Source: Nitrosospira multiformis ATCC 25196 (GTDB lineage: Bacteria > Pseudomonadota > Gammaproteobacteria > Burkholderiales > Nitrosomonadaceae). From it: a stretch of DNA of 32,000 nucleotides. Below are positions 17,611-29,754 of the stretch, in pieces. The DNA is taken from the NCBI RefSeq assembly GCF_000196355.1, contig NC_007614.1, forward strand, positions 2,700,001-2,732,000, given 5' to 3'. The position numbers and the translations under genes were made by a program. The notes beneath the pieces are model-generated. The model worked only from the letters and a program-made list of their open reading frames with translations. It had not been told where the DNA came from and did no database searches. The stretch's first letter is position 1; each line of letters opens with the position of its first letter.

Positions 17611-18024
17611 TTATGGCATTTCGCTGATGGTCCAATATGCATCGATTGACCTTATGACCTCGACGAATTGCCAGTAGTCAACCGGCTTCGACATATATCC
17701 AGCCACGCCGAAATCGAAACTGTTTACCTTGTCCTGCTGTTCATCCGATGTCGTCAGAACCACTACCGGGATACGCCTAAACCTGTCATCGCTCTTTACC
17801 GCTTCCAGGAATTCGATGCCGTTCATGATGGGCATGTTCAAATCCAGCAGAATGATGCAGGGTTTATCATTGGTTTCATCCTGAAGGTAGTTCAATCCGT
17901 CTTCGCCGTTCTCCCGGTGCACGATCTTATTGCTAACGTGAATCTGCTTGAGAGCGCGGGTCACGGACATCATGTCCACCTGGTCATCTTCGACCAGAAG
18001 AATTGGCCTGTTGGTTACCTTCAT
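17611..18024 (-). CDS. Single-domain (CheY/Rcp1-like) response regulator with no output domain
   Basis: ILLVEDDQVD (DD pair), IILLDLNMPIMNG (phospho-acceptor Asp), PVVVLTTS, and GYMSKP (conserved Lys). AGGA SD lies 8 nt before ATG 18024; GTG 18027 is an alternative start. No histidine kinase is found in the window. Confidence 0.85.
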   Translation of the reverse strand: MKVTNRPILLVEDDQVDMMSVTRALKQIHVSNKIVHRENGEDGLNYLQDETNDKPCIILLDLNMPIMNGIEFLEAVKSDDRFRRIPVVVLTTSDEQQDKVNSFDFGVAGYMSKPVDYWQFVEVIRSIDAYWTISEMP

Positions 18025-18383
18025 CACAGTTTTCCTGGTTTTATCCTCTGGTTTTATCCAGGAGATGTTCTCTCAGCTAATGCAAACTGAGGCACTTGGG
18101 TATGATTTATTACTTATCCCGCTCCATTCTGTTCGTTTTCCCACATAGCCCGCCTGAAACAGTCAAAGCAGGGTAAGAATGAAAGTTAAAGGCTGAGGTA
18201 ATAAACAAAAACCACAAGCCTTCACTTCCTATCGCCCCCCGGCTTTTCCCCGCACTTTTCGGACGCTTGCACAATTAATGAACTGAGTCCCAGGAATCGG
18301 GGCCTCGCCCTTGCGTATCGAGGGGGCTCGAGGTGTACTTCAGTCCAATGGAGAAAAGTGAGGAAAAAGAAATAATATGCCGC

Positions 18384-19154
18384 ATGTTCAATTCTCCCCT
18401 ACCCCACCCAAGCCAGAACCATCTCCTTGCCGCTTTGCCGGCAATGGAACTGGGCGATTTAATACCGCATCTGGAGCTGATTCATATGCGGGCTGGAGAT
18501 ATTCTCTGCGAAGCAGGGGATCAGCTTCCTTATGCCTACTTTCCCGCTTCTGCCATTATTTCCCTCCATTACATTCTGGAAAATGGCGCCTCGTCGGAAA
18601 TCGCAAACGTAGGAAGGGAAGGTATGCTTGGAGTCTCGTTGTTCATGGGGGGCGAGACTAGCAGCAACTGGGCAACAGTTCAAATCCCGGGCTTCGCCTA
18701 CCGCCTGAAGGCCGCATTTCTGTCACAGGAACTCAAGAGGGGCGGACAGCTACAATGGATATTGCTGCGTTACAGCCAGGCGCTTATTACACAGATCGCC
18801 CAGATCGGGGTGTGTAACCGATATCATACAATCGAGCAGCAGTTATGCCGTTGGTTCCTGTTAACGTTGGATCGCCTTGACTCCAGTGAACTGAGCATGA
18901 CCCAGGAATTGATCGCCAATGCCCTTGGGGTAAGCCGGGAAAGCGTTGCAGGAGTTGCGGGAAAATTACAAGGAAGGGGAATCATTCGCTACCAGCGCGG
19001 CCATATTACGGTACTTAACCGTACCGGGCTGGAAACAGGAGCGTGCGAATGCTATGAAACGATAAAGAAGGAATTTGACGACGCGCTTGATGACGTCCGG
19101 AAGCCCACGTTACATCAAGGCGATCAGTCATCCAAGACACTGCCACTCCTGTAG
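18384..19154 (+). CDS. Crp/Fnr-family transcriptional regulator (cNMP-binding-like domain + C-terminal HTH)
   Basis: QNHLLAALPAMELGDLIPHLELIHMRAGDILCEAGDQLPYAYFPASAIISL is the typical N-terminus of this Crp subfamily. C-terminal HTH: MTQELIANALGVSRESVAGVAGKLQGRGII. The start is chosen at ATG 18384; the ORF extends to GTG 18333. Confidence 0.8.
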   Translation: MFNSPLPHPSQNHLLAALPAMELGDLIPHLELIHMRAGDILCEAGDQLPYAYFPASAIISLHYILENGASSEIANVGREGMLGVSLFMGGETSSNWATVQIPGFAYRLKAAFLSQELKRGGQLQWILLRYSQALITQIAQIGVCNRYHTIEQQLCRWFLLTLDRLDSSELSMTQELIANALGVSRESVAGVAGKLQGRGIIRYQRGHITVLNRTGLETGACECYETIKKEFDDALDDVRKPTLHQGDQSSKTLPLL

Positions 19155-19690
19155 TATCCCTATCCGTATTTCGCTCGCCCCGCTCTGTAAGTTTCCACAG
19201 GCAGTTCCATGGGAGGGCCTTCTCATCTCCTCACCTCCACGCAGTCCCAAGCGGCGACCAAGTCGATATATCAGGTGGCTTGTTTCACCCATGAACGTGC
19301 GGCTTTTTCTTCCTTACTGTCATGGAGAATTTGGTGTATGCGGGCTGCCGCACAGAAAGAAAATTGAAACAGAGCTATAAAGGGTGCGTTGATCCCGATT
19401 GATAAGGGGAAGGGGATAGAGGCGCTCAGATCGATCTCAGGTCGATCGCCTGGATAGAAATGGAATTTATGGCAACACTGTCCCATTAGCCGAATTGGCA
19501 CTCTGTCCCCCAATCTCGGGTCTTTCTTTTTTGCCGCAGCGCCTTATCGTTACTCCTATCTACTACTGCTGTTCTGCTTCCCTCTTCAAAAGCAGAAGCA
19601 ACAGCAGGAAGGTGGCATATCCAGGATGCAACGAAATGTGGCGGAAGATGTGGCAGTTTTCATGGTTCATGATGAATAAGGAGATTCAAG

Positions 19691-20293
19691 ATGGCAGTGC
19701 TTGTTACACACCCTGCACCCGATTTCACAAAACCTGCTGTTCTGGCAGATGGCACCTTCAATGACAACTTCAACTTTCATGCGCAAATTGCTGGTAAATA
19801 TGCCGTATTGTTCTTTTATCCTCTGGATTTCACCTTTGTCTGTCCCTCCGAAATCATTGCGCACTCGCATCGCATAGAGGAGTTTCGCAAGCGCAACGTG
19901 GAAGTGATTGGAGTCTCGGTGGATTCCCAGTTCACCCACTACGCGTGGCGCAACACCCCTGTCGACAAAGGCGGCATTGGTCCGGTGGGAATCACGCTGG
20001 TATCCGACGTAGGGGGAGACATCATGCACGCTTACGGCATTGCCCACCCGGACCACGTTGCCCTGCGCGCCTCTTTCCTGATAGATAAAAACACCATCGT
20101 GCGCCACGAAGTCGTTAACGACCTGCCCCTGGGGCGGGATGTAGACGAAATGCTGCGCATGGTCGATGCCCTGCAATTTCACGAAAGCCATGGAGAGGTG
20201 TGCCCGGCCGGGTGGAAAGCAGGTGAACCCGGAATGAAAGCCAGTCCCGAGGGTGTGGCGGAATATCTGGAAAGTCATGGCGAAGCGCTCTGA
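19691..20293 (+). CDS. Typical 2-Cys peroxiredoxin (AhpC/TSA family)
   Basis: Peroxidatic Cys motif FYPLDFTFVCPSEI and resolving Cys EVCPAGW. AAGGAG SD lies 7 nt upstream of the ATG. Confidence 0.9.
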   Translation: MAVLVTHPAPDFTKPAVLADGTFNDNFNFHAQIAGKYAVLFFYPLDFTFVCPSEIIAHSHRIEEFRKRNVEVIGVSVDSQFTHYAWRNTPVDKGGIGPVGITLVSDVGGDIMHAYGIAHPDHVALRASFLIDKNTIVRHEVVNDLPLGRDVDEMLRMVDALQFHESHGEVCPAGWKAGEPGMKASPEGVAEYLESHGEAL

Positions 20294-20349
20294 CGCAACG
20301 AACCTGCACCTCCTTGAACTCCTCTCCTGTAACCATAAGGGTGAAACAC

Positions 20350-20811
20350 ATGGATTTCGATAAAGACAAGGCGATCGCGCTGCTGAACCGAATCATGGAA
20401 CTCGAGCTTGCCGGAGTAGTGCGATACACGCATTATTCATTGATGGTCTTCGGCTACAACCGGATTCCAGTGGTGGAATGGCTCAAGAAGCAGGCTGAAG
20501 AAGGATTGCTCCACGCGCATAGAGCCGGAGAACTCGTCACGTTACTGGGAGGCTATCCTTCGCTTGGGATCGGATCTCTGCTGGAAACGCACGTGCATGA
20601 CATCGGCGATATTCTGCGGGAATCGCTGGAGCATGAGAACAAGTCGCTTACTGCCTACTACGAGCTGCTGGAGCTGACCCAGGGCAAGTCAGTGCTGCTG
20701 GAGGATTATGCGCGTGGCCTTGTCGTCGAAGAGGAAATGCATGCGGACGAAGTCAACAAGATGTTGCGGAGAACGGGAAAAACAGGCGTGTACGAAACGT
20801 CGAAGAGTTAG
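20350..20811 (+). CDS. Ferritin-like di-iron protein (bacterioferritin/Dps superfamily)
   Basis: Four-helix ferritin-like pattern with two E-x-x-H motifs (QAEEGLLHA, EEEMHADE). The start is at ATG 20350 (MDFDKDKAIALLN...) preceded by AAGGGTG; the ORF-track TTG at 20314 is less likely. It sits 56 bp after the peroxiredoxin gene. Confidence 0.72.
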   Translation: MDFDKDKAIALLNRIMELELAGVVRYTHYSLMVFGYNRIPVVEWLKKQAEEGLLHAHRAGELVTLLGGYPSLGIGSLLETHVHDIGDILRESLEHENKSLTAYYELLELTQGKSVLLEDYARGLVVEEEMHADEVNKMLRRTGKTGVYETSKS

Positions 20812-20869
20812 GTATGCAGGAATTGATCCCTCCTGGAATCATTGCCGGTTGAAAGCGATGCAGATTGCC

Positions 20870-21070
20870 TTAGTCCTCGCCTGTCTTAGGGCTGTAAACC
20901 ATTCCGCTTAACTGAATCATCAGGTCAATTTCACTTTCGTCCTCATCCAGGTCCTGATCGCCTTGATCGAATTCGTAGAATTCGGTCAACGAAGAAAGTG
21001 GATCGTGCTCCGCGACATCGGCGGATCTCAGGGAAAGGAATGGTTGCAACATTACATCCGCCAGGCTCAT
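20870..21070 (-). CDS. Hypothetical small, highly acidic protein (66 aa)
   Basis: Canonical SD CAGGAGGAGCGT-ATG. The start overlaps the upstream ORF stop (ATGA, 21067-21070). The sequence has a D/E-rich core (EFDQGDQDLDEDESEID). I recognise no family. Confidence 0.5.
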   Translation of the reverse strand: MSLADVMLQPFLSLRSADVAEHDPLSSLTEFYEFDQGDQDLDEDESEIDLMIQLSGMVYSPKTGED

Positions 21071-21300
21071 ACGCTCCTCCTGGATCCGGATAGACGTGTA
21101 AACACGGGGAGCAAGAGAGCTTCAAAGCTGGGCAAGGTAGCCGGGACACCGGTAGCAACATACTCTGTCTCTCCGGTGGGAGCTATATAAGCAGCAGAAC
21201 CTTCACCGATCAGCGGGGAGATTCCCTTCCAAACACGATTCATGATGACCGCGCTTGAGGGTGAGATTGCGATCACTAATGCAGGTAGCCGGAATTTCAT
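21067..21300 (-). CDS. Hypothetical small protein (77 aa) with a possible N-terminal signal peptide
   Basis: Very strong SD AAAGGAGGCAAATC-ATG. The N-terminus MKFRLPALVIAISPSSA is signal-like. It is translationally coupled to the downstream 66-aa ORF. I recognise no family. Confidence 0.5.
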   Translation of the reverse strand: MKFRLPALVIAISPSSAVIMNRVWKGISPLIGEGSAAYIAPTGETEYVATGVPATLPSFEALLLPVFTRLSGSRRSV

Positions 21301-21463
21301 GATTTGCCTCCTTTGAGCAATCCAGTCAATATCATTTGAAACCTTTGTCAGCTTGTACAGGCTACCTGCGACAGATGGCAGTACGATGAAAGTTTTATGA
21401 AGTATTAAATTCCTCGAAAGCCTTTGCCCCCTTCCCCTGTTCTATCGGCAGTCCATCCGTATT

Positions 21464-21913
21464 TCATCCCCTTCCCGAATACTCAAACGTAACCGGCTCG
21501 AATGGAAGTCGCTGGCAATCGTCCTGCATCAATGCGGCAGTTTCTCCCAAGGCGATTTCACGCAGTCTGCACCGCATGGTCAGAACACCATTACCCGACT
21601 CGAATACACCGCAGGTATGCATCGTGCTGCAAGCCGATTCGTTCTCTGAAGCCGCGTCTGGTCCGACGTTATTCATGACCGCTACCGGCAAATGAGGATA
21701 GCGCCGTCTGGCTTCCCGCACCCATTGCACCAGGTTCACCTGCTGGGTGCAATCGTCTACTGCGCCGTCGACCAGGACCATGTCATAGGCCTCGAGGTCC
21801 GGCTCCGGGAAGCTGTCCAGTGTTTTTCGCTCCAGCCTGTGCTTGGATTTTTCAAGCAGCAGTTGCAGGAGCTGGCGGGTATCTTGTCTCTCTCCAACCA
21901 GTAGAATATTCAT
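21464..21913 (-). CDS. Hypothetical protein with a degenerate receiver (CheY-like) N-terminal half and a Cys-containing C-terminal tail
   Basis: The start ATG 21913 overlaps the luxI stop (ATGA) and is preceded by AAGGAAGG. The beta-alpha pattern is NILLVGERQD / YDMVLVDGAVDD / LPVAVMNN. It keeps one candidate Asp but lacks the DD pair, the T/S and the K of true receivers. The ORF-track start at 21991 lies inside luxI. Confidence 0.6.
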   Translation of the reverse strand: MNILLVGERQDTRQLLQLLLEKSKHRLERKTLDSFPEPDLEAYDMVLVDGAVDDCTQQVNLVQWVREARRRYPHLPVAVMNNVGPDAASENESACSTMHTCGVFESGNGVLTMRCRLREIALGETAALMQDDCQRLPFEPVTFEYSGRG

Positions 21914-22533
21914 GCGGCCTTCCTTTGCGCGTTTTCCGGGAGTATCCCAAAAAGGGCGAATTCGGTGATTGCATCGATTTCGATATAGCATGCGACCGTC
22001 AAAACCCGCCCGATTTTGACCGGTGCCCCCAACCTGGAAACGTTCACGCCAAGCTTGCGTATCAGTCTCTCCACTGCGACGGTGGTAACGGTTACATAGC
22101 GCTTTATCTTGTTGTGGCGCGCGAAGAGAAAAAGGGTTTGCATCATTTTTACCGGAATCTCGCTAAAACCGAAACCGGCACTCTCATATTTGGGGACCAT
22201 GACGGCAAAACGGCTCAATTCCCAGACATCCGATTGCTGCGGCGCGGGCTGTCCGTGCAGAAGTTGCGGAAAAGTATCCTTCAACATGTAGGGTCCCTGG
22301 GTGGGAAGCAGTCGCCAGCAACCGAGCACCTCGTCTTCATCCCCCTCATCCCCTTTTGCCAGAACATATACGGGATCTGCCAGATCGAACTCGTCATGCT
22401 CCATCCCGTTATCCGTGGTTACTTCCCAGCCGAGCCTGTCGTGAAAAACTTCGTGCCTCAGCCGATACATTCCCATTGCGGCCCGTTTATCGAGAGAACC
22501 ATTGCCATGTTGTGCAAGCATAATCTGTCCCAT
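21910..22533 (-). CDS. luxI: Acyl-homoserine-lactone synthase (LuxI family)
   Basis: 207 aa with LuxI-family hallmarks: MYRLRHEVFHDRLGWEV (compare LuxI KLRKKTFSDRLGWEV), CWRLLPT, and WELSRFAV. There is a lux-box palindrome about 70 bp upstream. Confidence 0.9.
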   Translation of the reverse strand: MGQIMLAQHGNGSLDKRAAMGMYRLRHEVFHDRLGWEVTTDNGMEHDEFDLADPVYVLAKGDEGDEDEVLGCWRLLPTQGPYMLKDTFPQLLHGQPAPQQSDVWELSRFAVMVPKYESAGFGFSEIPVKMMQTLFLFARHNKIKRYVTVTTVAVERLIRKLGVNVSRLGAPVKIGRVLTVACYIEIDAITEFALFGILPENAQRKAA

Positions 22534-22593
22534 TTTTTCACTCGTCGTTGGTTGATGACGACGTTATGAAACAACGGAACCGGATCTCCGAAT

Positions 22594-22613
22594 AGCTGTA
22601 AAATCTTACAGGA
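22594..22613 (-). promoter_or_regulatory. lux-box-like LuxR-type operator upstream of luxI
   Basis: AGCTGTAAAATCTTACAGGA contains a perfect inverted repeat CTGTAA-N4-TTACAG (22596-22611), i.e. the CTG-N10-CAG architecture. Compare the V. fischeri lux box ACCTGTAGGATCGTACAGGT. Its centre is about 70 bp from the luxI ATG. Confidence 0.65.
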
Positions 22614-23215
22614 CCAGACGGGGTATACTGGCTGCAATCCTTTCCTGACGCGGGTTTCGGCGGGTAGGAGAGAATGCGTGCAGAGCAGGTTTTTTACGGA
22701 AAAACGAGCAGAAAATGCAGCATTCTGTCGCGGTGGCCGTGCGAGTCCACCCCCCCTCAATGGCTGGGCTGCAATGACAAATCATAAAACGAAACTTTGC
22801 GCGGTCGCGAAGACTGTTCCTCAGCAGGGAAGCAAGAGAAACGGGTATACGGAGGGTGACAGAGGATGGATCTCCCATCTTTCCATCGGTCCGAAGACTG
22901 GATTAGCTGTTATAGAGTACTTGGAGACCCATGCCGATGGCACTCGCCAACGCTTGGGCCGATGGGTACAGCGAGGTCTCTCAGAACCTCGGACCGCATG
23001 TCCGCTCACATCCTCGGGACGTTGTGGTAAGCAGGATGAGACGGGGTGATCTCAGGTTCTGGAGTGAGAATACGGCTGTGCTGGGGAGCCCTCACCGGAA
23101 GCAAGGACTGGCTGAAGGAGTTGTTATAGAAGCATGTTCAAGCGAAAAGATGTTTTTTCCCCAGCAAGGATGATTCCCTGCAGGGGAGCTGAACCTCTTC
23201 TACCATCAGTTGAAA

Positions 23216-25504
23216 TCAGTTGAAATTGAATCGGATGGAACCGAAGGCGCTGAGAGGGTTTCCAGGCAATGCGCCCGCGAATGTCGGATTGGTATAGTAG
23301 GTTTTATCCGTGAGGTTCTTTATGTTGACTGCGAGATCAACTTTTTTGATGCGATAAGATGCGGCTGCGTCAAACACGACATAAGATGGCACCTTGAGAA
23401 GATTCAGCGAGTCGGCATAGGAATCTCCCTTATAGGTGACCCCGAACCCGAACATCAATCCACGGGCCAGGCCGCTCTGTATCTCGTACGTCATCCACAG
23501 ATTGCCCATGGTGGTCGCGACCCCGACGGGCCGAGTTCCAAAGACACTTCTCGTAATGCCAAGCACAGAGTTGGTGGCAACATTGCCTGCTCGTGTTTCC
23601 GGGTCCATCACCACACCATTACCGATGATGCTCCATCCGGCAACTGGACGAAAGCCAAGCGATACCTCCACTCCGCGCGTGCGATCCTTCCCATCCGGAG
23701 TCGGGATGTTGCCGGAACCGGGCAAGGTGACGAAATAATTATTGCGGCTGGATTGAAACAGCGCCACATTGAGATCGGCCTTTCCGTCGAAAAGCATCAT
23801 TTTTGCCCCCACTTCAACCTGATCCGACGTCTCGGGTGCTGTGGAGAGCGCCTGCGGCTCGGTGGACAGATTGATGAAGGCGCCGGTGCTGTAACCTGCG
23901 TAAAATGCCAGATTCTGGGTGGGCTGATACACACCGCCCGTGGAGTAGGTGGTCATGGACTTCGTTTGCACTATTTCACGATATCGGATGGGTGATCCGT
24001 GCGCTGTCGGGTTTGCTCTTTGCAAGCCTTTATCGCTGTATTTCACCAGGTCGTTGCGGATTCCAAGGCGAAGCTTGAACTGCTCGGTCAAGTCGATCTG
24101 GTCCTGGGCATAAAACGAGACTTGGTCACTGCCAATATGGCGGTCAAAAGTCAGGGAACCGCCATTAACTTTAGGGTCGTTCAGTGAAGTTTCCACTACC
24201 GGGTTAAAGATGTTTATGCGGTCCAGAGTGTAAGTCGAGCGGGCCGCGTTGATGTCTACATTCTTGTATTCGAAACCTCCCAGAAAAGTATGCTTGACAG
24301 GCCCCGTGCTCGTTTTCCAAACGAACTCATTTTGCAGGGTGGTGTAACCGGCATTATCGAACTGCTGGTACGCGGTGCGTCCCGTGCTAAACCCGGCCGC
24401 ATTACCCTGATTGCCGCCGGCATTGCGCAATAGCTCGAGCGTTCGCGCATCGTAGACGAACGCGGTGCGCATGCTCAAAGTGTCCGATAGGGTCCAGTGG
24501 TGCGTCAGGCCAAGGCGGTTGATGGTATGGTCTGTCTTGTTGAACCGGCTGTAATAGCGCGTGTCGCGGGATACGTTGGCGATATTAGAGTTAGCATCAA
24601 AGAGTATTCCGTAATTATCGGGCTTGATTTTGAGCTCGCGGTGATCGTAATCGACATGGAGCGTCTTATCGTCCGCCAGTCTCCAGGTGAAGCTGGGGGA
24701 AGCCTCCACAATATTGCGCTCCAGGCCACGAAACCCGTCCGTGTGCTCCATATCCGCGATGAGACGTCCCGCTACATTCGGCAGATAAGGGATGGCACCT
24801 GTCACGTCCACATAGCCGTTGCGTGTACCGAAACTGCCCAGCATGGTGCCTGCGGACAGTCCGAAACTATACCGCGGCTGCTTCGTCACCAGGTTGAGGC
24901 TGCCCCCGGGACCGGCAACTCCGAATAGCGCGGAGCCGGGGCCCTTCAGCACTTCAATACGCTCGATGTCGTACATCGTGCGGAAATAGTTGTTCTGGAG
25001 GTTCCCATCCGGAATATAGTCACGGAAAAAACTGAGCGCCAGGCCGCGCGATGTAAAGCTGTTGGCAAATCCGTAACCACCCCCCATGAGTGGCTGCACG
25101 CTGCTGACATTGCGCATGGCGTCATTCATCTCGATGACACCCTGCTCCTTAAGAGTGGACGCCGGCACGACATTGACTGTCGCAGGGATGTCACGCAAGG
25201 GAGTATCTGTCTTGCTGCCGGTGCGGGCAACGTCCTCGATCGTTCCTGGACGGACCCGCCCGGTAGTCACCTTGATCTCCGGCAGGGTCGCATTTTTTTC
25301 CTTCTCTTTCCCTGCATCTTGAGTCGCCACTGCATCTTGAGCCGTGGCTGCGTCTGGAGACGTCCCACCTTGGGATATCACTGTATCTGGAGATGTCGCT
25401 GCATCTTGAGCGGCTGCAGGCACCGGTATCAATGACCATGAACAAAACAGGGTTATAGGGACCAAAAAACGGGATATGGGCTTGAATCTGGATAACTGTT
25501 TCAC
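23216..25504 (-). CDS. TonB-dependent outer-membrane receptor (siderophore/iron class)
   Basis: 762 aa with a signal peptide and a plug domain (DTPLRDIPATVNVVPASTLKEQG, IERIEVLKGPGSALFG). A long beta-barrel ends in ...GSIRFNFN. Confidence 0.9.
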   Translation of the reverse strand: MKQLSRFKPISRFLVPITLFCSWSLIPVPAAAQDAATSPDTVISQGGTSPDAATAQDAVATQDAGKEKEKNATLPEIKVTTGRVRPGTIEDVARTGSKTDTPLRDIPATVNVVPASTLKEQGVIEMNDAMRNVSSVQPLMGGGYGFANSFTSRGLALSFFRDYIPDGNLQNNYFRTMYDIERIEVLKGPGSALFGVAGPGGSLNLVTKQPRYSFGLSAGTMLGSFGTRNGYVDVTGAIPYLPNVAGRLIADMEHTDGFRGLERNIVEASPSFTWRLADDKTLHVDYDHRELKIKPDNYGILFDANSNIANVSRDTRYYSRFNKTDHTINRLGLTHHWTLSDTLSMRTAFVYDARTLELLRNAGGNQGNAAGFSTGRTAYQQFDNAGYTTLQNEFVWKTSTGPVKHTFLGGFEYKNVDINAARSTYTLDRINIFNPVVETSLNDPKVNGGSLTFDRHIGSDQVSFYAQDQIDLTEQFKLRLGIRNDLVKYSDKGLQRANPTAHGSPIRYREIVQTKSMTTYSTGGVYQPTQNLAFYAGYSTGAFINLSTEPQALSTAPETSDQVEVGAKMMLFDGKADLNVALFQSSRNNYFVTLPGSGNIPTPDGKDRTRGVEVSLGFRPVAGWSIIGNGVVMDPETRAGNVATNSVLGITRSVFGTRPVGVATTMGNLWMTYEIQSGLARGLMFGFGVTYKGDSYADSLNLLKVPSYVVFDAAASYRIKKVDLAVNIKNLTDKTYYTNPTFAGALPGNPLSAFGSIRFNFN

Positions 25505-25596
25505 TTATAGCCTCTTTTAATTTTTTTACTACTGGCTGGCTACAAGCACGAAGGCGTTGGCTGGCTGTGGATTCTTTTTCCCACCGAAACTGGGCG

Positions 25597-25615
25597 GGAA
25601 ATTATAATCAATTGG
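25597..25615 (-). promoter_or_regulatory. Fur-box-like site overlapping a TATAAT -10 upstream of the TonB-dependent receptor
   Basis: GGAAATTATAATCAATTGG matches the 19-bp Fur consensus GATAATGATAATCATTATC at about 12/19 by manual alignment, with the core ATAATCA. On the minus strand a perfect TATAAT (25606-25601) lies about 95 bp before ATG 25504. Confidence 0.35.
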
Positions 25616-25660
25616 ACATTCTTTTATCGAAGTTCAGGGGAACTTTTTCAAAAATAACGA

Positions 25661-26437
25661 TCATCCCAGCGATAGCGTCGTCAACATGAGAATCGCAGCA
25701 GTTGTCAGGGTCGTCCCAATCAACCCGGCTGCCATCAAGCGGGGACCATGCAAGCGGCTCCACAACAGCGTGCCTGTGATGGCCAGCACCAGCAGGCCGC
25801 CTGCCAGCGTATCTGTGAGCAATATCCAGACATTGGACATCCCGCTTCCCTTGTGAAAGTTTGCCAGAGTCGCCCAGACATTGGCCTCTTTCCGCTCGAT
25901 ATGCGTCTCGGCATCTCCTTTCCAGTATTCCGCGGTCACGCTATGATTGGGCGCAAGGAGCGTAATACGCCAGTTTTCCGGCTGTATGACCTGCCCCCCT
26001 CCCCATGGCACCGGTCCCGCCGGTTTTTTCTGCGTGCGCGATTTTGCATCGGGCATTTTGAATTTTTCGCGCAGCCAGGATTCCAGCGCCTCCGGTGACT
26101 CAACGCTGTTGGCAGGCGGAGTGAGTATTTCGCGGGTTTCATGCTGCGCCGCGAGGGGAATTTTCATTTCGCTGCGGTGATTCAGCAGAATCCCGGATAC
26201 CCCGAACAGCAGGCCAAGCGCCGCGCCCCACAATCCCATCCAGGCATGAGTGCGACGCAGCCAGACCAGAAAGCGGCCGCGCTTCATCCCCTGTGATAAA
26301 AAGAGGTAACCGCGTGGCTCCGTCACCACGGGACGCGCCCCCTGGCCTGCAACGTGAGGCTGTCCCATGCTCTGTGCAGTTGCTGAAGTTACAGAAGATT
26401 TGGGTGCTGCTTGCGCGCCGGATTGAACAGTGCTCAT
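25661..26437 (-). CDS. PepSY-associated TM-helix protein (FoxB-like putative ferric-siderophore reductase family)
   Basis: Characteristic RRTHAWMGLWGAALGLLFGVSGILLNH, plus later TM helices and ANFHKGSG. The start ATG overlaps the DUF4198 stop (ATGA 26434-26437). The first ~50 aa are low-complexity, so an internal start (MKRGRF...) is possible. Confidence 0.78.
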   Translation of the reverse strand: MSTVQSGAQAAPKSSVTSATAQSMGQPHVAGQGARPVVTEPRGYLFLSQGMKRGRFLVWLRRTHAWMGLWGAALGLLFGVSGILLNHRSEMKIPLAAQHETREILTPPANSVESPEALESWLREKFKMPDAKSRTQKKPAGPVPWGGGQVIQPENWRITLLAPNHSVTAEYWKGDAETHIERKEANVWATLANFHKGSGMSNVWILLTDTLAGGLLVLAITGTLLWSRLHGPRLMAAGLIGTTLTTAAILMLTTLSLG

Positions 26438-27093
26438 TTGTACAGGCTGCGTGTGATCTTGTGGCTCTCGACCGCGTATGCCTTGCCTTCGAACTCGCCG
26501 GGTTTGTGCATCTCGTATTTCGCTTCGATCACATACAGGCCCGGCTCAAGCAACGAGTAGGTCACCTCCCCTTTCTCATCCGTCTGCAGATGTTTCTCCC
26601 AGCCATTGGGTGCGATGACCACGATTTCGACCTTGGGGACAGGCTTTCCCAAATAGGTCAGGCGCAACGTATTACCGGATTCCTGGATATCGAGCGGCAG
26701 GCTGCCTCCGCTACCGAGGCGCGTATAGAGAAATCTTCTGTAGGTAGGAGACGGAATTTGCCCTTGCGGCTCGCGTATGGATTGCTTAAGCGCCTGCACC
26801 AGTACAGCGCCGTCCTGATCATTACCTGCCGGTATCGCGAAATAATTATTCTCGCGCCTGGCTTCGACAGGCTTTTCAACGCCTTTGGCGTTTACCATCG
26901 TCACCTTCGGTTCGATAATGCTATCGAGCCTGCCCGGCGAAGGCTCACGCAGATTTTCCGCGTATTCACCGAAATAAAGCCGGATTGCTCCGGCTTCTTT
27001 CTCAAGCCACAGCGCATGAGCTGCAACATCCAGGCTGAGCACACAGCCGATAATACCCATACCTGTTGCATGGATAAATTGCGGGAGTTTCAT
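26434..27093 (-). CDS. DUF4198-family periplasmic protein (metal-uptake associated)
   Basis: 219 aa with a signal peptide ending AAHALW. The all-beta sequence has the typical C-terminus GLYVIEAKYE...KITRSLY of DUF4198 / NikK-like proteins. It is classically clustered with PepSY_TM and TonB receptors. Confidence 0.75.
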   Translation of the reverse strand: MKLPQFIHATGMGIIGCVLSLDVAAHALWLEKEAGAIRLYFGEYAENLREPSPGRLDSIIEPKVTMVNAKGVEKPVEARRENNYFAIPAGNDQDGAVLVQALKQSIREPQGQIPSPTYRRFLYTRLGSGGSLPLDIQESGNTLRLTYLGKPVPKVEIVVIAPNGWEKHLQTDEKGEVTYSLLEPGLYVIEAKYEMHKPGEFEGKAYAVESHKITRSLYK

Positions 27094-27163
27094 CGAGCTT
27101 TTCCTTTTCTATTATTTATCAGGGAGTGGAAATGATTGGGCTGTTATAAGTATTTGTTTTCCA

Positions 27164-28162
27164 TTACTTTGCCGGCGCTACGTTCCATCGGGTAGACATC
27201 CCGGCCATCATGTGATCGTCGACGTGGCAGTGCAATAGCCAGTTACCGGGTGAACGCGGAACCATGTCGACCGAGGTCATACTTGCGGGAAGCACTTCCA
27301 CCACATCCGTGCGGCGTCCATGATCGAGTACTGTCTGGGCATGCCAGTGCACGGTATGGTTATCCGTCTCGTTACCGAGTGCCACGACGTGCCAGCGCAC
27401 GCGCTTTCCAATACCTGTATCGTAACCCTTGAGGTTACCGAAAATGCGACCGTTGATGGTGTGCTTCATTCCGCTTTCTTCCCCGTTCTCCTCATTGAAG
27501 ATCATGAACAAGGTGATGAATTCCTGATCCACATCATTCGGCGATGGATCGCGAGTCGATCTTGCCACGCCCTGCCGGGTCACAATGATGGCACCGACCA
27601 GGCCGAGATTCGCTTCTTCCTCTTCCATTACATGCGAGTGATACAGCCAGACGATCGAGGAAGGATCAGTTGGTCCGGGACCGGAAGCCTCATCCACAAC
27701 CCAGGTATAAGTGAAGGACTTCCCCGGCGGCACTGCGGCCCCGATACCTGCTCCCGTGCTGGCGGCATCCGCGCCCTCGCTTTTCTTATCATAAAATACG
27801 CCGTGCGGGTGCATGGAAAGCGCCCGGTCGGTCTTGTTCAGAAAATGAACCTTGAGGGTGTCGCCCACTTCTGCCCGAAGCTGGGGGCCCAGAATTCCTG
27901 CCCACTCCGGCTGCACCAATCGCTCCTTGTAGCGCCCATCCTTGTAGCCAAAATAGCGGTACTTAGGGTATGTCAGCGTTTTGCCCCACACTCCCAATCC
28001 ATCATCTGGCTTGATCAGATTCTTGCCGGACGGCGCATAGTTCCAGGTAACTTTTTCCGCCGCAACCCAGTACTCCCTTTCCGCGGCCATTGCCTGCCCC
28101 ATACCAAAAAGCGCAAGAAGACCAAGCAGCACCATAATCCGGCCAGCATTGCAAATATTCAT
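27164..28162 (-). CDS. Two-domain multicopper oxidase (cupredoxin x2), exported
   Basis: All four copper motifs are present: HPHG, WLYHSHV, HTVHWHA, and HCHVDDHMMAGM (type-1 Cu Cys/His/Met). Signal peptide MNICNAGRIMVLLGLLALFGMGQAMA. The start is uncertain: ATG 28162 is chosen; the ORF track has ATG 28201, and ATG 28135 is also possible. Confidence 0.85.
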   Translation of the reverse strand: MNICNAGRIMVLLGLLALFGMGQAMAAEREYWVAAEKVTWNYAPSGKNLIKPDDGLGVWGKTLTYPKYRYFGYKDGRYKERLVQPEWAGILGPQLRAEVGDTLKVHFLNKTDRALSMHPHGVFYDKKSEGADAASTGAGIGAAVPPGKSFTYTWVVDEASGPGPTDPSSIVWLYHSHVMEEEEANLGLVGAIIVTRQGVARSTRDPSPNDVDQEFITLFMIFNEENGEESGMKHTINGRIFGNLKGYDTGIGKRVRWHVVALGNETDNHTVHWHAQTVLDHGRRTDVVEVLPASMTSVDMVPRSPGNWLLHCHVDDHMMAGMSTRWNVAPAK

Positions 28163-28173
28163 GTTTTTATAAT

Positions 28174-28192
28174 ACGAATGATAATCACTGCA
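28174..28192 (-). promoter_or_regulatory. Fur-box-like site at the 5-prime end of the multicopper oxidase gene
   Basis: ACGAATGATAATCACTGCA matches the Fur consensus at about 12/19 by manual alignment, with an 11-nt contiguous core AATGATAATCA. On the minus strand it is embedded in TTGCAG-N16-TATAAA, a promoter-like arrangement. Confidence 0.55.
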
Positions 28193-28253
28193 AGATATCA
28201 TAAAATCCTGACCCCACCTCCACCGATTTCTACACCGTTAGATCTGAATGTCC

Positions 28254-29015
28254 TTAATAATCCTTGAACTGCCCCTCTTCGGGAGAAGCTGGGCAACGCC
28301 TCTTTGATTGATCGGATCTAGCCGGTGCGGGTGAGGTATACAATCCCGCCAGAGTAGCGATACCTTTACAAAAGGTTGAAAGGTTTGAGCGATCCAACAA
28401 GACGCAGGGCTTGCCGGAACGTCGGCAGTAACGCTTGACGGTGAAAAAAGCGGTATGGTTTACGCAATCCAGGGGGCAGACGACCATGTCTGCCTGGTCC
28501 AACAATACGGGCAAGTGATGTCCCGGTTCCTGAGGCAGGTTTCTGTAGATGACCAGCTTACCCCCGGAAGCCTCCACTACACGGCGATATTCCGGGTACA
28601 GCACGGCGCGCCCCCCCACGCACAGAACGCAGCGCCCCCCGATACCGGATCCCTTGCATGCGCCGTTTCCTTCTTCACCAAAAGCGGGGGAAGGTGATTG
28701 TTCGACAAAAAACGACGCAGGCGGAGCGGACTCCTTGACCAGTGGAAATCTATCCGTTTCGGCGACTTCCAGCCTGGCATGATTTTCGGGGTCGACCCGA
28801 TCGGGTGGGAGTGAATGAACAGGCTTGCTACCAGTCGGCCGCTTGCCGGCAGGTACAGGTTTCGATTTCCCGATCAGAACCGCTGATCGACCCAGTCGCG
28901 CTATCCGCGTCAATCCTGCAGGGGTAAAAAAAGGATTGCTGTCCCGCGCGCTGAAAAATTGCCTGGCAATCTCAACCAGATTTTTTCCGAGCAGCGCTAG
29001 CAATATCTGCGGCAT
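28254..29015 (-). CDS. DUF2325 domain protein (the domain is in the C-terminal ~100 aa); the true start is uncertain
   Basis: The C-terminus GGRCVLCVGGRAVLYPEYRRVVEASGGKLVIYR...MVVCPLDCVNHTAFFTVKRYCRRSGKPCVLLDRSNLSTF fits DUF2325. The ORF is open up to GTG 29279, but that start lies inside the bfr terminator hairpin. The first in-frame ATG is at 29015, with no obvious SD. Confidence 0.55.
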   Translation of the reverse strand: MPQILLALLGKNLVEIARQFFSARDSNPFFTPAGLTRIARLGRSAVLIGKSKPVPAGKRPTGSKPVHSLPPDRVDPENHARLEVAETDRFPLVKESAPPASFFVEQSPSPAFGEEGNGACKGSGIGGRCVLCVGGRAVLYPEYRRVVEASGGKLVIYRNLPQEPGHHLPVLLDQADMVVCPLDCVNHTAFFTVKRYCRRSGKPCVLLDRSNLSTFCKGIATLAGLYTSPAPARSDQSKRRCPASPEEGQFKDY

Positions 29016-29251
29016 CTGCCTAGGGTGGATGAATAAATTCGGGGAAGGAGAGAATTTACCCTGTCTGGAGGTTGCGGAATCGCGGTGCTCCGGTTCGAGC
29101 AGGGCAGATGCGGGAACACAGAGATTAGCCAGCGATGTTGCCTTAAGCTGTTGCACAGCCCACTCCGGACAGGTCAGAAAGCTGGCTTGCCCTGTAGGGG
29201 CTGGCTGGCTGAAAACCAAAAAAGTAAAAAGGTGAACAAACTCGAACAAGG

Positions 29252-29277
29252 GCCGCTGGAAAAAGAAATCCAGCGGC
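29252..29277 (-). terminator. Candidate intrinsic terminator after bfr
   Basis: Perfect 9-bp stem GCCGCTGGA / TCCAGCGGC with an 8-nt loop, starting 12 nt after the bfr stop. On the minus strand it is followed by the moderately U-rich CCUUGUUCGAGUUUGUU. Confidence 0.55.
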
Positions 29278-29289
29278 ACATAAACAAGT

Positions 29290-29754
29290 CTACATCTGGC
29301 TCTGCAGCCAGTTCTGGATACCCACTTTCTGCATCACATCCAGCTGCGTTTCCAGCCAGTCGATATGGCCTTCGGTATCTTCCAGGATTTCTTTCAGAAG
29401 CTCCCGCGAAACATAATCCTTCGCCGCTTCACACGCAGCGATGCCGCCAAGCAGCGTTTCGCGTGAAATCATTTCAAGCCTGAGGTCGCAGTCAACGCAT
29501 TCCTCCGCTTTCTCACCAATCAGAAGCTTGCCCAGTTCCTGCAGGTTGGGCAACCCTTCCAGAAACAGGATACGCTTGATGAGCATATCGGCATGCTTCA
29601 TCTCTTCTATGGATTCCTCATATTCCAGCTTGCCAAGCTTGTCGAAGCCCCAGTTTTCGTACATGCGGGCATGAAGGAAATACTGATTGATGGCCGTCAA
29701 TTCATGCTGCAATTGGCGGTTAAGCCACTGGATAATGTCTGCGTTGCTCTTCAT
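29290..29754 (-). CDS. bfr: Bacterioferritin
   Basis: 154 aa, collinear with E. coli Bfr (AINQYFLHARM, EESIEEMKHAD with the haem-ligand Met, RILFLEGLPNLQ, EGHIDWLETQL). AGGAGG SD lies 6 nt upstream. Confidence 0.95.
   Translation of the reverse strand: MKSNADIIQWLNRQLQHELTAINQYFLHARMYENWGFDKLGKLEYEESIEEMKHADMLIKRILFLEGLPNLQELGKLLIGEKAEECVDCDLRLEMISRETLLGGIAACEAAKDYVSRELLKEILEDTEGHIDWLETQLDVMQKVGIQNWLQSQM

Follow-up and report, generated by a model that had tools for sequence, protein, structure and literature searches.

The 32-kb stretch of DNA analysed here (the window, to whose positions all coordinates refer) carries, on the minus strand of 21464-22613, a luxI gene, a lux box in front of it and, downstream of luxI, an open reading frame (ORF) of 149 amino acids (aa) to which we gave the working name X. 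In an ammonia oxidiser resembling Nitrosospira multiformis, the luxI-X pair is the autoinduction cassette of an acyl-homoserine-lactone (AHL) quorum-sensing system; elsewhere the window carries housekeeping genes and iron and oxidative-stress genes, and the proteins encoded there are 96-99% identical to those of N. multiformis strains. Judged by sequence, X defines a small, undescribed, luxI-linked family in a known regulatory niche, that of a third gene inside the luxI/R locus, and it accompanies a LuxR system and does not replace LuxR. The conservation of X, its synteny and the negative outcome of the family tests support an undescribed accessory factor, which is probably a new accessory regulator of cell-to-cell signalling.

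The luxI gene (21910-22533, minus strand) encodes a LuxI-family AHL synthase of 207 aa. Its product matched the Pfam family Autoind_synth (PF00765) at 6.2e-35 (120.8 bits, cutoff 24) over residues 20-188 of 207, and also the NCBIfam AHL-synthase models at 1e-34 to 7e-36, yet under their equivalog cutoffs. A LuxI-family synthase had already been recognised at this place in an earlier, sequence-only reading of the stretch, with which both sets of matches agree. The production of AHLs by this protein is predicted from the family match. The ratio of non-synonymous to synonymous substitution rates (dN/dS) of luxI was 0.06-0.09 against close relatives. The LuxI of N. multiformis Nl7 is 99% identical to that of the window, which we take to be the orthologue of the protein called NmuI. 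Gao et al. are said to have found in 2014 that NmuI of N. multiformis alone makes AHLs in Escherichia coli.

The link between luxI and X is very close. The luxI stop codon TGA shares letters with the ATG of X in an ATGA overlap (21910-21913, minus strand), and a Shine-Dalgarno sequence for X, AAGGAAGG (21918-21925, minus strand), lies within the last luxI codons, 5 nucleotides (nt) before the X ATG. Both elements had been pointed out by the sequence-only reading, and both recur in the related loci. An (A/G)TGA overlap was observed outright in 64 junctions and, with an alignment offset, in two more (L071 and L072), which makes approximately 66 out of 69, and a purine-rich AGGnnG element situated 6-13 nt before the X start was kept in all junctions. 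The exceptions to the overlap were L062, in which TAA is followed by 4 nt and then by ATG; L069, with a spacer of 112 nt between luxI and X and a GGAGG Shine-Dalgarno sequence of its own; and L039, whose contig ends early. Translational coupling is therefore strongly preferred, though, as L062 and L069 show, without being an absolute requirement. The X start codon of the locus of Nitrosovibrio sp. Nv17 (L053) is GTG.

A scan of one genome per species (185,579 species) gave 58 X loci, in which luxI ended exactly at the X start wherever there was upstream sequence. In addition, eight metagenome loci encode an X that is 34-42% identical to that of the window, and the order luxI-then-X was found in all six of those that could be tested. 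This linkage holds with luxR adjacent or not and whatever gene comes downstream. A single luxI-X transcript is expected from the lux-box promoter described below.

The X gene occupies 21464-21913 on the minus strand (149 aa plus stop codon). A search of 5.8 billion proteins returned 126 homologues of approximately 146-165 aa, all of them annotated as 'hypothetical' and coming from Nitrosospira, Nitrosovibrio, Candidatus Nitrotoga, Gallionellaceae and unclassified Nitrosomonadaceae. Furthermore, a profile search of 1.84 billion representatives at 50% identity gave only 45 hits, about 30 of them full-length clusters of 125-162 aa; there were also a few weak matches restricted to the N-terminus, which were to receiver domains of long signalling proteins. 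The dN/dS of X was 0.10-0.13 in the unsaturated comparisons with close relatives, a value that marks X as a real gene under purifying selection; this value and the conservation of the protein ruled out that X is a chance or decaying ORF. Residue conservation was counted over 48 diverse members of the family. C115 and Y145 are present in 48/48, C101 and G109 in 47/48, H25 and F143 in 46/48, and D49 in 44/48.

None of these 48 members reached the threshold of any Pfam or NCBIfam family, and the sub-threshold matches were to GlnR_1st, FleQ and Response_reg, of the receiver clan, and to a flavodoxin-fold model. A look-up of the clusters of the distant members gave no informative names, and no description of X was found by locus tag and keyword in the searchable literature, whose reach does not include Gao 2014 and Mellbye 2017. 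The undescribed luxI-linked factor proposed by the sequence-only reading is thus sustained as regards the missing Pfam/NCBIfam family and the conservation beside luxI, and its function is something that we infer.

The N-terminal half of X is a degenerate receiver (REC-like) domain (21659-21913, minus strand; residues 1-85) with the order beta1-alpha1-beta2-beta3-alpha3-beta4. When the family profile was compared with the PDB, receiver domains were matched over residues 1-92, the best one being the REC domain of RpfC (3m6m, E=7.8e-7), followed by many response regulators. AlphaFold2 (AF2) run with a 26-sequence alignment left the C-terminal half of X unmodelled, and the model improved with 48 sequences including distant members, its predicted local distance difference test (pLDDT) values being 81-92 for residues 1-80. 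Foldseek searches with both AF2 models returned receivers and pseudo-receivers for the N-terminal ~90 residues (probability 1.0, TM of approximately 0.4-0.5) and nothing for the part of X beyond them. A receiver-like N-terminal half, which had been read from the sequence, is therefore backed by profile and structure comparisons alike. Residues 1 to about 90 cover beta1 to beta4, and the alpha4-beta5-alpha5 part of the receiver fold is replaced. The Response_reg model (PF00072) stayed under threshold in all members, with a best E of 0.003 and matches in 5/48.

Concerning the phosphorylation site, the acidic pair that corresponds to CheY D12/D13 is G7/E8 in the X of the window, while distant members have G-G (40/48 members have G at position 7; at position 8, 25 have E, 11 have G and 8 have D). 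The equivalent of T87 is N81; of the 48 members, 29 have N at this position, 15 have S and one has T, the S and T being found mostly in distant members. No Lys-bearing beta5 can be aligned, a Cys hairpin taking that region. The sequence-only reading had noted that X lacks the acidic DD pair, the T/S and the K of canonical phosphotransfer, and all three losses are confirmed. However, its account of the Asp site has to be completed: the acidic pair is lost, and D49, which aligns with the acceptor Asp of the RpfC REC domain, is kept as Asp in 44/48 members, the other four having E, I or M. Because of the G7/E8 pair, N81 and the replaced Lys/beta5-alpha5 region, normal phosphotransfer by X is unlikely.

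A variable and disordered linker (residues 88-100) leads to a family-specific C-terminal module (21467-21616, minus strand; residues 100-149) formed by a hairpin, a helix and the terminal EPVTFEYSG. In the 48-sequence AF2 model the hairpin strands comprise residues 101-105 and 111-115 and the helix residues 116-134, with pLDDT values of approximately 63-67. The tail contains the four Cys counted in the sequence-only reading, at positions 95, 101, 115 and 133, and only C101 and C115 are kept family-wide; in the model they would face each other at the base of the hairpin. The C-terminus of the family reads EPxTFEY(S/Q)G. No PDB or Pfam match was obtained for this module, which was confined to the ~140-160-aa X family among the 1.84 billion representative proteins.

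The sequence-only reading had described a solo luxI coupled to X instead of being paired with luxR. Its observation that the window contains no luxR was reproduced both by scanning 27 ORFs, approximately two dozen of which are likely genes, with Pfam and by tblastn with three LuxR proteins in all six frames. Likewise, no luxR was found within 6 kb of luxI-X in any locus of the Nitrosospira/Nitrosovibrio clade, and tblastn detected no remains of a decayed luxR in the interval from luxI to the TonB receptor gene. However, luxR lies directly upstream and on the same strand, in the order luxR-luxI-X, in Nitrotoga, in Gallionellaceae, in a second Nitrosomonadaceae group and in distant GC-rich metagenome contigs. 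The search for luxR elsewhere in the genome, proposed in that reading, showed that the Nitrosospira/Nitrosovibrio clade encodes an unlinked LuxR of 244 aa, which shares approximately 60% identity with the LuxRs encoded beside luxI in the sister lineages; its gene has a conserved site of its own (PmbA, hypothetical gene, luxR, exo/endo-phosphatase gene, GTP cyclohydrolase I). In Nitrosovibrio Nv4 luxR is on the same contig as luxI, ~29 kb upstream of it (L074 against L016), a distance at which luxR would fall beyond the end of the 32-kb window. No lux box was detected upstream of the unlinked luxR in L074. The luxR-luxI-X order of the sister lineages, the unlinked orthologue and the conserved lux box make the expression 'solo luxI' misleading: it reflects the size of the window and the fact that luxR was relocated in this lineage, and the system is not LuxR-less.

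A metagenome-assembled genome of Gallionellaceae (L005/L061, 3485-4045) and a metagenome contig (L068, ~272-781) encode an extra LuxR paralogue of ~186 aa directly upstream of the full-length luxR. This protein has only the Autoind_bind domain, with no helix-turn-helix (HTH), and may be a TrlR-like dominant-negative receptor.

The lux box (22594-22613, minus strand) consists of a 16-bp core, CTGTAAGATTTTACAG, at 22596-22611, inside a conserved 20-mer, CCTGTAAGATTTTACAGCT. The core sits 63-78 bp before the luxI ATG of the window, with its centre approximately 70 bp before it. It is an exact CTGTAA-N4-TTACAG palindrome with one exact match in the whole 32 kb, and shuffled windows had an average of 0.45 matches when up to 2 mismatches were allowed. 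The near-perfect box of the sequence-only reading proved to be kept across some 60 related loci, luxR-linked and luxR-unlinked, both in its sequence and in its distance of 75-83 bp upstream of the luxI ATG, which is conservation far beyond chance. By sequence and position it is a ~20-bp CTG-N10-CAG dyad whose placement would overlap the -35 region of the luxI promoter, and it is expected to be the operator for a LuxR-type activator encoded elsewhere in the genome. Nearly every locus of ~12 kb has a single lux box; the exceptions are a few N. lacus-type loci with a second, weaker box and L058 with a distal one.

X was also compared with the accessory proteins already described in luxI/luxR loci. 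RsaM is a small cytoplasmic quorum-sensing regulator of 140-170 aa encoded beside luxI and/or luxR in beta- and gamma-proteobacteria (PMC10710839), and the LuxI clade of the window is related to the AbaI/AnoI-type synthases, whose loci carry AbaM (PMC6050957, PMC8088503). X resembles RsaM, TofM and AbaM in being small and cytoplasmic, in having no DNA-binding domain and in adjoining luxI. Nevertheless, its membership of this group (PF16245, DUF4902) was rejected, as 0/48 members matched the model at E<=1 and hhalign gave a probability of 0.35% against a Burkholderia glumae DUF4902 protein (L077:1101-1553); in addition, 4O2H-type structures were absent among the best 50 Foldseek matches listed per search. 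RsaM has been described as a 'novel fold', in contrast to the REC-like X, and its gene is an independent transcription unit usually found between luxI and luxR (PMC10710839), whereas X is coupled to the 3' end of luxI with no space for a promoter. The genus list given in the same review is explicitly partial; it omits Nitrosomonadales and includes Acidithiobacillus (PMC10710839). Since Acidithiobacillus is among the RsaM-bearing genera, the orf3 located between afeI and afeR in A. ferrooxidans (PMC3759942) is probably RsaM-type and not X-type. RsaL is a small HTH repressor divergent from luxI. X was rejected as a member both by position, since it follows luxI on the same strand, and by the lack of an HTH, no such family appearing among the Pfam matches of the 48 members save for one isolated sub-threshold Xre-like match in a single member. 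The statement of the sequence-only reading that neither RsaM/TofM nor RsaL obviously matches X agrees with all these data on homology, HTH and position.

BCAM1871 of Burkholderia cenocepacia is encoded downstream of cepI, is co-transcribed from a LuxR-dependent promoter, modulates AHL activity and is known from one genus (PMC3356288). X too follows a luxI gene under a LuxR-type promoter; however, BCAM1871 has 254 aa and is 52 bp from cepI, whereas X overlaps luxI, and hhalign gave a probability of 0.16% (against L078:3145-3909), so that X was rejected as a BCAM1871 homologue. CinS, of approximately 67 aa, is much smaller than X. It is a PraR anti-repressor, alphaproteobacterial and without a receiver-like domain, and X shares with it the position of a small gene directly after the synthase gene, the two proteins having been compared by description. 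In the cinIS operon of Rhizobium leguminosarum, CinS is encoded downstream of the AHL synthase gene, is co-transcribed with it, so that the amount of CinS reflects autoinduction, and acts by protein binding, independently of AHL (PMC5977203, PMC4149787).

Other parallels concern the fold. In Xanthomonas the REC domain of RpfC binds and restrains RpfF, the synthase of the diffusible signal factor, without phosphorelay (PMC4504480), and this REC domain, as stated above, headed the PDB sequence matches of the X profile. On the other hand, RpfF is a crotonase-type enzyme and not a LuxI, the signal chemistry is other, and the RpfC REC is a canonical phosphorylatable domain in a hybrid kinase, whereas X stands alone as a truncated receiver, followed by an unrelated module at its C-terminus. 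A functional parallel between X and the RpfC REC is hypothesised by analogy. Finally, the pseudo-receivers and atypical receivers (CikA PsR, the TadZ/CpaE N-terminal domain, FleQ, GlnR), which are among the Foldseek and Pfam near-hits of X, share the receiver fold and a degenerate phosphorylation site and act via protein-protein interaction. They differ in having a complete (beta-alpha)5 fold plus output domains; X is without alpha4-beta5-alpha5 and has instead the Cys hairpin and the EPxTFEY(S/Q)G module.

As X is unlikely to accept phosphate in the normal way and has no DNA-binding or enzymatic domain, it would act by protein-protein contact. The fixed ratio to LuxI in which X would be made and a divergence that tracks LuxI and not LuxR point to the synthase as the most likely partner: in the pairwise distances of 21 luxR-luxI-X loci, the correlation of X was 0.84 with LuxI and 0.76 with LuxR, and the partial correlations were 0.54 for X-LuxI given LuxR and -0.08 for X-LuxR given LuxI. 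Our tentative preference, drawn from the features of the protein and from analogy, goes to X being a modulator of the LuxI synthase, possibly redox- or metal-gated via C101/C115. A LuxR-type activator encoded elsewhere would bind the lux box and give one transcript with luxI and the coupled X, and each firing of the circuit would yield X and LuxI in a fixed ratio. X would then be a phosphorylation-independent adaptor, acting by protein-protein contact most likely with the synthase: bound to LuxI, it would tune the AHL output at the post-translational level, as a feedback or gating subunit, and through the conserved Cys pair this control may be redox- or metal-sensitive. If X acts on the synthase, this would be a new control level for LuxI enzymes. 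A more specific version, in which X would be a co-translated regulatory subunit of LuxI whose C101/C115 sense redox or metal and gate AHL synthesis, seems unlikely; were it true, a LuxI enzyme would for the first time be seen to be controlled at the protein level by a dedicated partner, and the quorum signal of nitrifiers would be tied to oxidative or iron status and, in most lineages, also to a co-transcribed cyclic diguanylate (c-di-GMP) enzyme. Several points weigh against an action on the synthase. The distance correlation is weak evidence, because X and luxI overlap physically, so that their histories of recombination and transfer are tied to each other more closely than to that of luxR. 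The match to RpfC is of a generic REC kind, the analogy being conceptual, and the C-terminal half of the X model is only moderately confident (pLDDT 51-67). NmuI alone reportedly makes AHLs (Gao et al., in 2014), and X would then be dispensable for catalysis, which fits a modulator and gives it no support. Finally, the GGDEF-EAL gene that comes right after X in 8/9 non-Nitrosospira loci fits an output relay at least as well.

Such a relay, somewhat doubtful as it is, would be CinS-like: X would rise with autoinduction and bind a non-LuxR signalling protein, with no action on the synthase. The next same-strand gene after X encoded a GGDEF-EAL protein in eight of the nine non-Nitrosospira loci tested (L038, L042, L048, L049, L050, L058, L059 and L073; L004, L005 and L006 were also named for this pattern), with sensor domains that vary (PAS, MASE1, REC+GAF, PAS-GAF or none). 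In L073, the most distant locus, this gene begins a few nt after X, and one further locus has a HAMP histidine kinase in its place. The absence of a separate lux box before the GGDEF-EAL gene implies a luxI-X-GGDEF/EAL operon, read from the luxI promoter, which would link AHL quorum sensing to c-di-GMP. The most obvious target of the relay would be this downstream c-di-GMP enzyme, a histidine kinase or receiver partner being also possible, and X would then be a direct coupler between quorum sensing and c-di-GMP. Receiver-like domains commonly dock onto signalling proteins, and precedents can be found in CinS (PMC5977203) and in Nitrospira, where LuxR controls a GGDEF/EAL gene (PMC8553950). Nevertheless, the Nitrosospira/Nitrosovibrio clade has no adjacent GGDEF-EAL gene and yet keeps X under purifying selection, X tracks LuxI in every context, and membership of the same quorum-sensing regulon could by itself explain why c-di-GMP genes are adjacent. 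It is rather improbable that X is an anti-activator or modulator of LuxR, like TraM, QslA or RsaM, giving negative feedback by binding LuxR. Accessory proteins of this kind are common in luxI/R loci, a chimeric RsaM-LuxR points to LuxR contact (PMC10710839), X is under lux-box control by position, and the genomes that carry X also carry an orthologous LuxR; however, X has no homology to any known anti-activator, its partial correlation with LuxR is about zero, and it stayed with luxI when luxR moved in Nitrosospira, although this may merely reflect the overlapping frames. It is very improbable that D49 is phosphorylated and that X works as an ordinary single-domain response regulator, despite the conservation of D49, an S or T at the T87 position in 16/48 members and a histidine kinase or REC-containing protein downstream in some loci. 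The acidic pair, the Lys and beta5-alpha5 have all gone, D49 itself is replaced in four members, Response_reg stays under threshold, and the nearest Pfam models are those of the phosphorylation-independent atypical receivers GlnR_1st and FleQ. The strong version of the sequence-only reading, in which luxI would be truly solo and X would take the place of LuxR as signal-transduction partner, is scarcely credible. It would account for the missing luxR in the window and within 6 kb in the Nitrosospira-clade loci, but it is contradicted by the ~60%-identical orthologue (in Nv4 on the same contig), by a LuxR-type lux box conserved in the luxR-unlinked clade, by the adjacent luxR that X has in all other lineages and by the lack of any ligand-binding or DNA-binding domain in X.

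The accessory proteins of luxI/luxR loci (RsaL, RsaM, CinS and BCAM1871) set the timing and strength of quorum sensing; each of them belongs to a different family, and the mechanisms of RsaM and BCAM1871 are poorly understood. X would be a fifth, structurally distinct accessory type, with a truncated receiver and a Cys-pair module, and its linkage to the synthase, conserved among lineages only 35% identical, is stricter than that of the other accessory proteins considered. Its hosts are nitrifiers (Nitrosospira, Nitrosovibrio, Nitrotoga) and iron-oxidiser relatives, organisms that are hard to work with genetically and whose quorum sensing has been connected with N-oxide fluxes and with biofilm or granule formation. 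As X is small and can be tested heterologously, it offers a practical entry point to the quorum sensing of nitrifiers.

Between the lux box and the luxI start codon of the window, the alignment of 16 upstream regions revealed a phylogenetic footprint, GTTGTTTCATAAC (22563-22575, minus strand), which is a candidate -10 region. A simple sigma-70 scan, uninformative here, called no promoter at luxI, as expected for an activator-dependent promoter. Next to this motif there is a conserved stem-loop (22538-22564, minus strand; ACGTCGTC, loop, GACGAGTGA) with equivalents in L001-L073. With the structure given explicitly, 78.6% of the cells were paired in 27 distinct sequences, against 33-55% with the partners slid; the covariation score was 0.354 against at most 0.18, and double changes were seen in 5/8 pairs. 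RNAalifold returned no structure for the luxI leader, owing to indels, and Rfam matched nothing in 20500-23500, the stem-loop included. If the box is centred at -42.5, the stem-loop is predicted to be at or near the 5' end of the luxI mRNA. In the Nitrotoga-type loci its 3' arm includes the luxI Shine-Dalgarno sequence (e.g., CCTCCTGTC...GACAGGAGG), which suggests a control of translation or of mRNA stability.

Some loci differ in this promoter region. The N. lacus-type loci L001-L003 and L026-L028 have, ~129-130 bp before luxI, a second and weaker lux-box-like dyad (e.g., CTGTAATCCGCTACAG), which precedes the main box by ~50 bp. In L053, where the usual promoter footprint is missing, the lux box has been displaced to a point ~360 bp before luxI; this suggests an insertion or rearrangement in the promoter. 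A second site in the window, CTGTAAGTTTCCACAG (19185-19200, plus strand), was rejected as a lux box giving a local regulon, since its 2 mismatches place it within chance (mean of 0.45 per window); it falls between a Crp/Fnr-family regulator gene and a peroxiredoxin gene.

Downstream of X, Nitrosospira has two small ORFs where other lineages have the GGDEF-EAL gene. In the window they occupy 20870-21300 on the minus strand, with 77 aa (21067-21300) and 66 aa (20870-21070) and an overlap of 4 nt. The 66-aa ORF is acidic, carries the motif ESEIDLMIQLSGMVY, and is kept downstream of X in ~26-30 loci of the Nitrosospira clade, the Nitrotoga-type loci being without it; the 77-aa ORF has a strong Shine-Dalgarno sequence and is poorly conserved. 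Neither of them matched Pfam or NCBIfam. A terminator scan, uninformative overall, gave no terminator-like site between X and these ORFs, which may tentatively be regarded as the tail of the luxI-X operon.

At 3-4 kb from luxI-X the window encodes a bona fide single-domain CheY-type response regulator (17611-18027, minus strand; Pfam Response_reg, 2.6e-19) and a Crp/Fnr-family regulator (18333-19154, plus strand); at this place N. lacus has a different gene (PP-binding/AMP-binding/acyltransferase). The luxI-X pair of Nitrosospira itself lies between oxidative-stress genes (19691-20811), namely those for a 1-Cys/AhpC peroxiredoxin and a Dps/ferritin-like protein, and an iron-/copper-related block (23216-29754) with a TonB-dependent receptor, PepSY_TM, DUF4198, a two-domain multicopper oxidase, DUF2325 and ferritin. 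N. lacus shares this flanking synteny.

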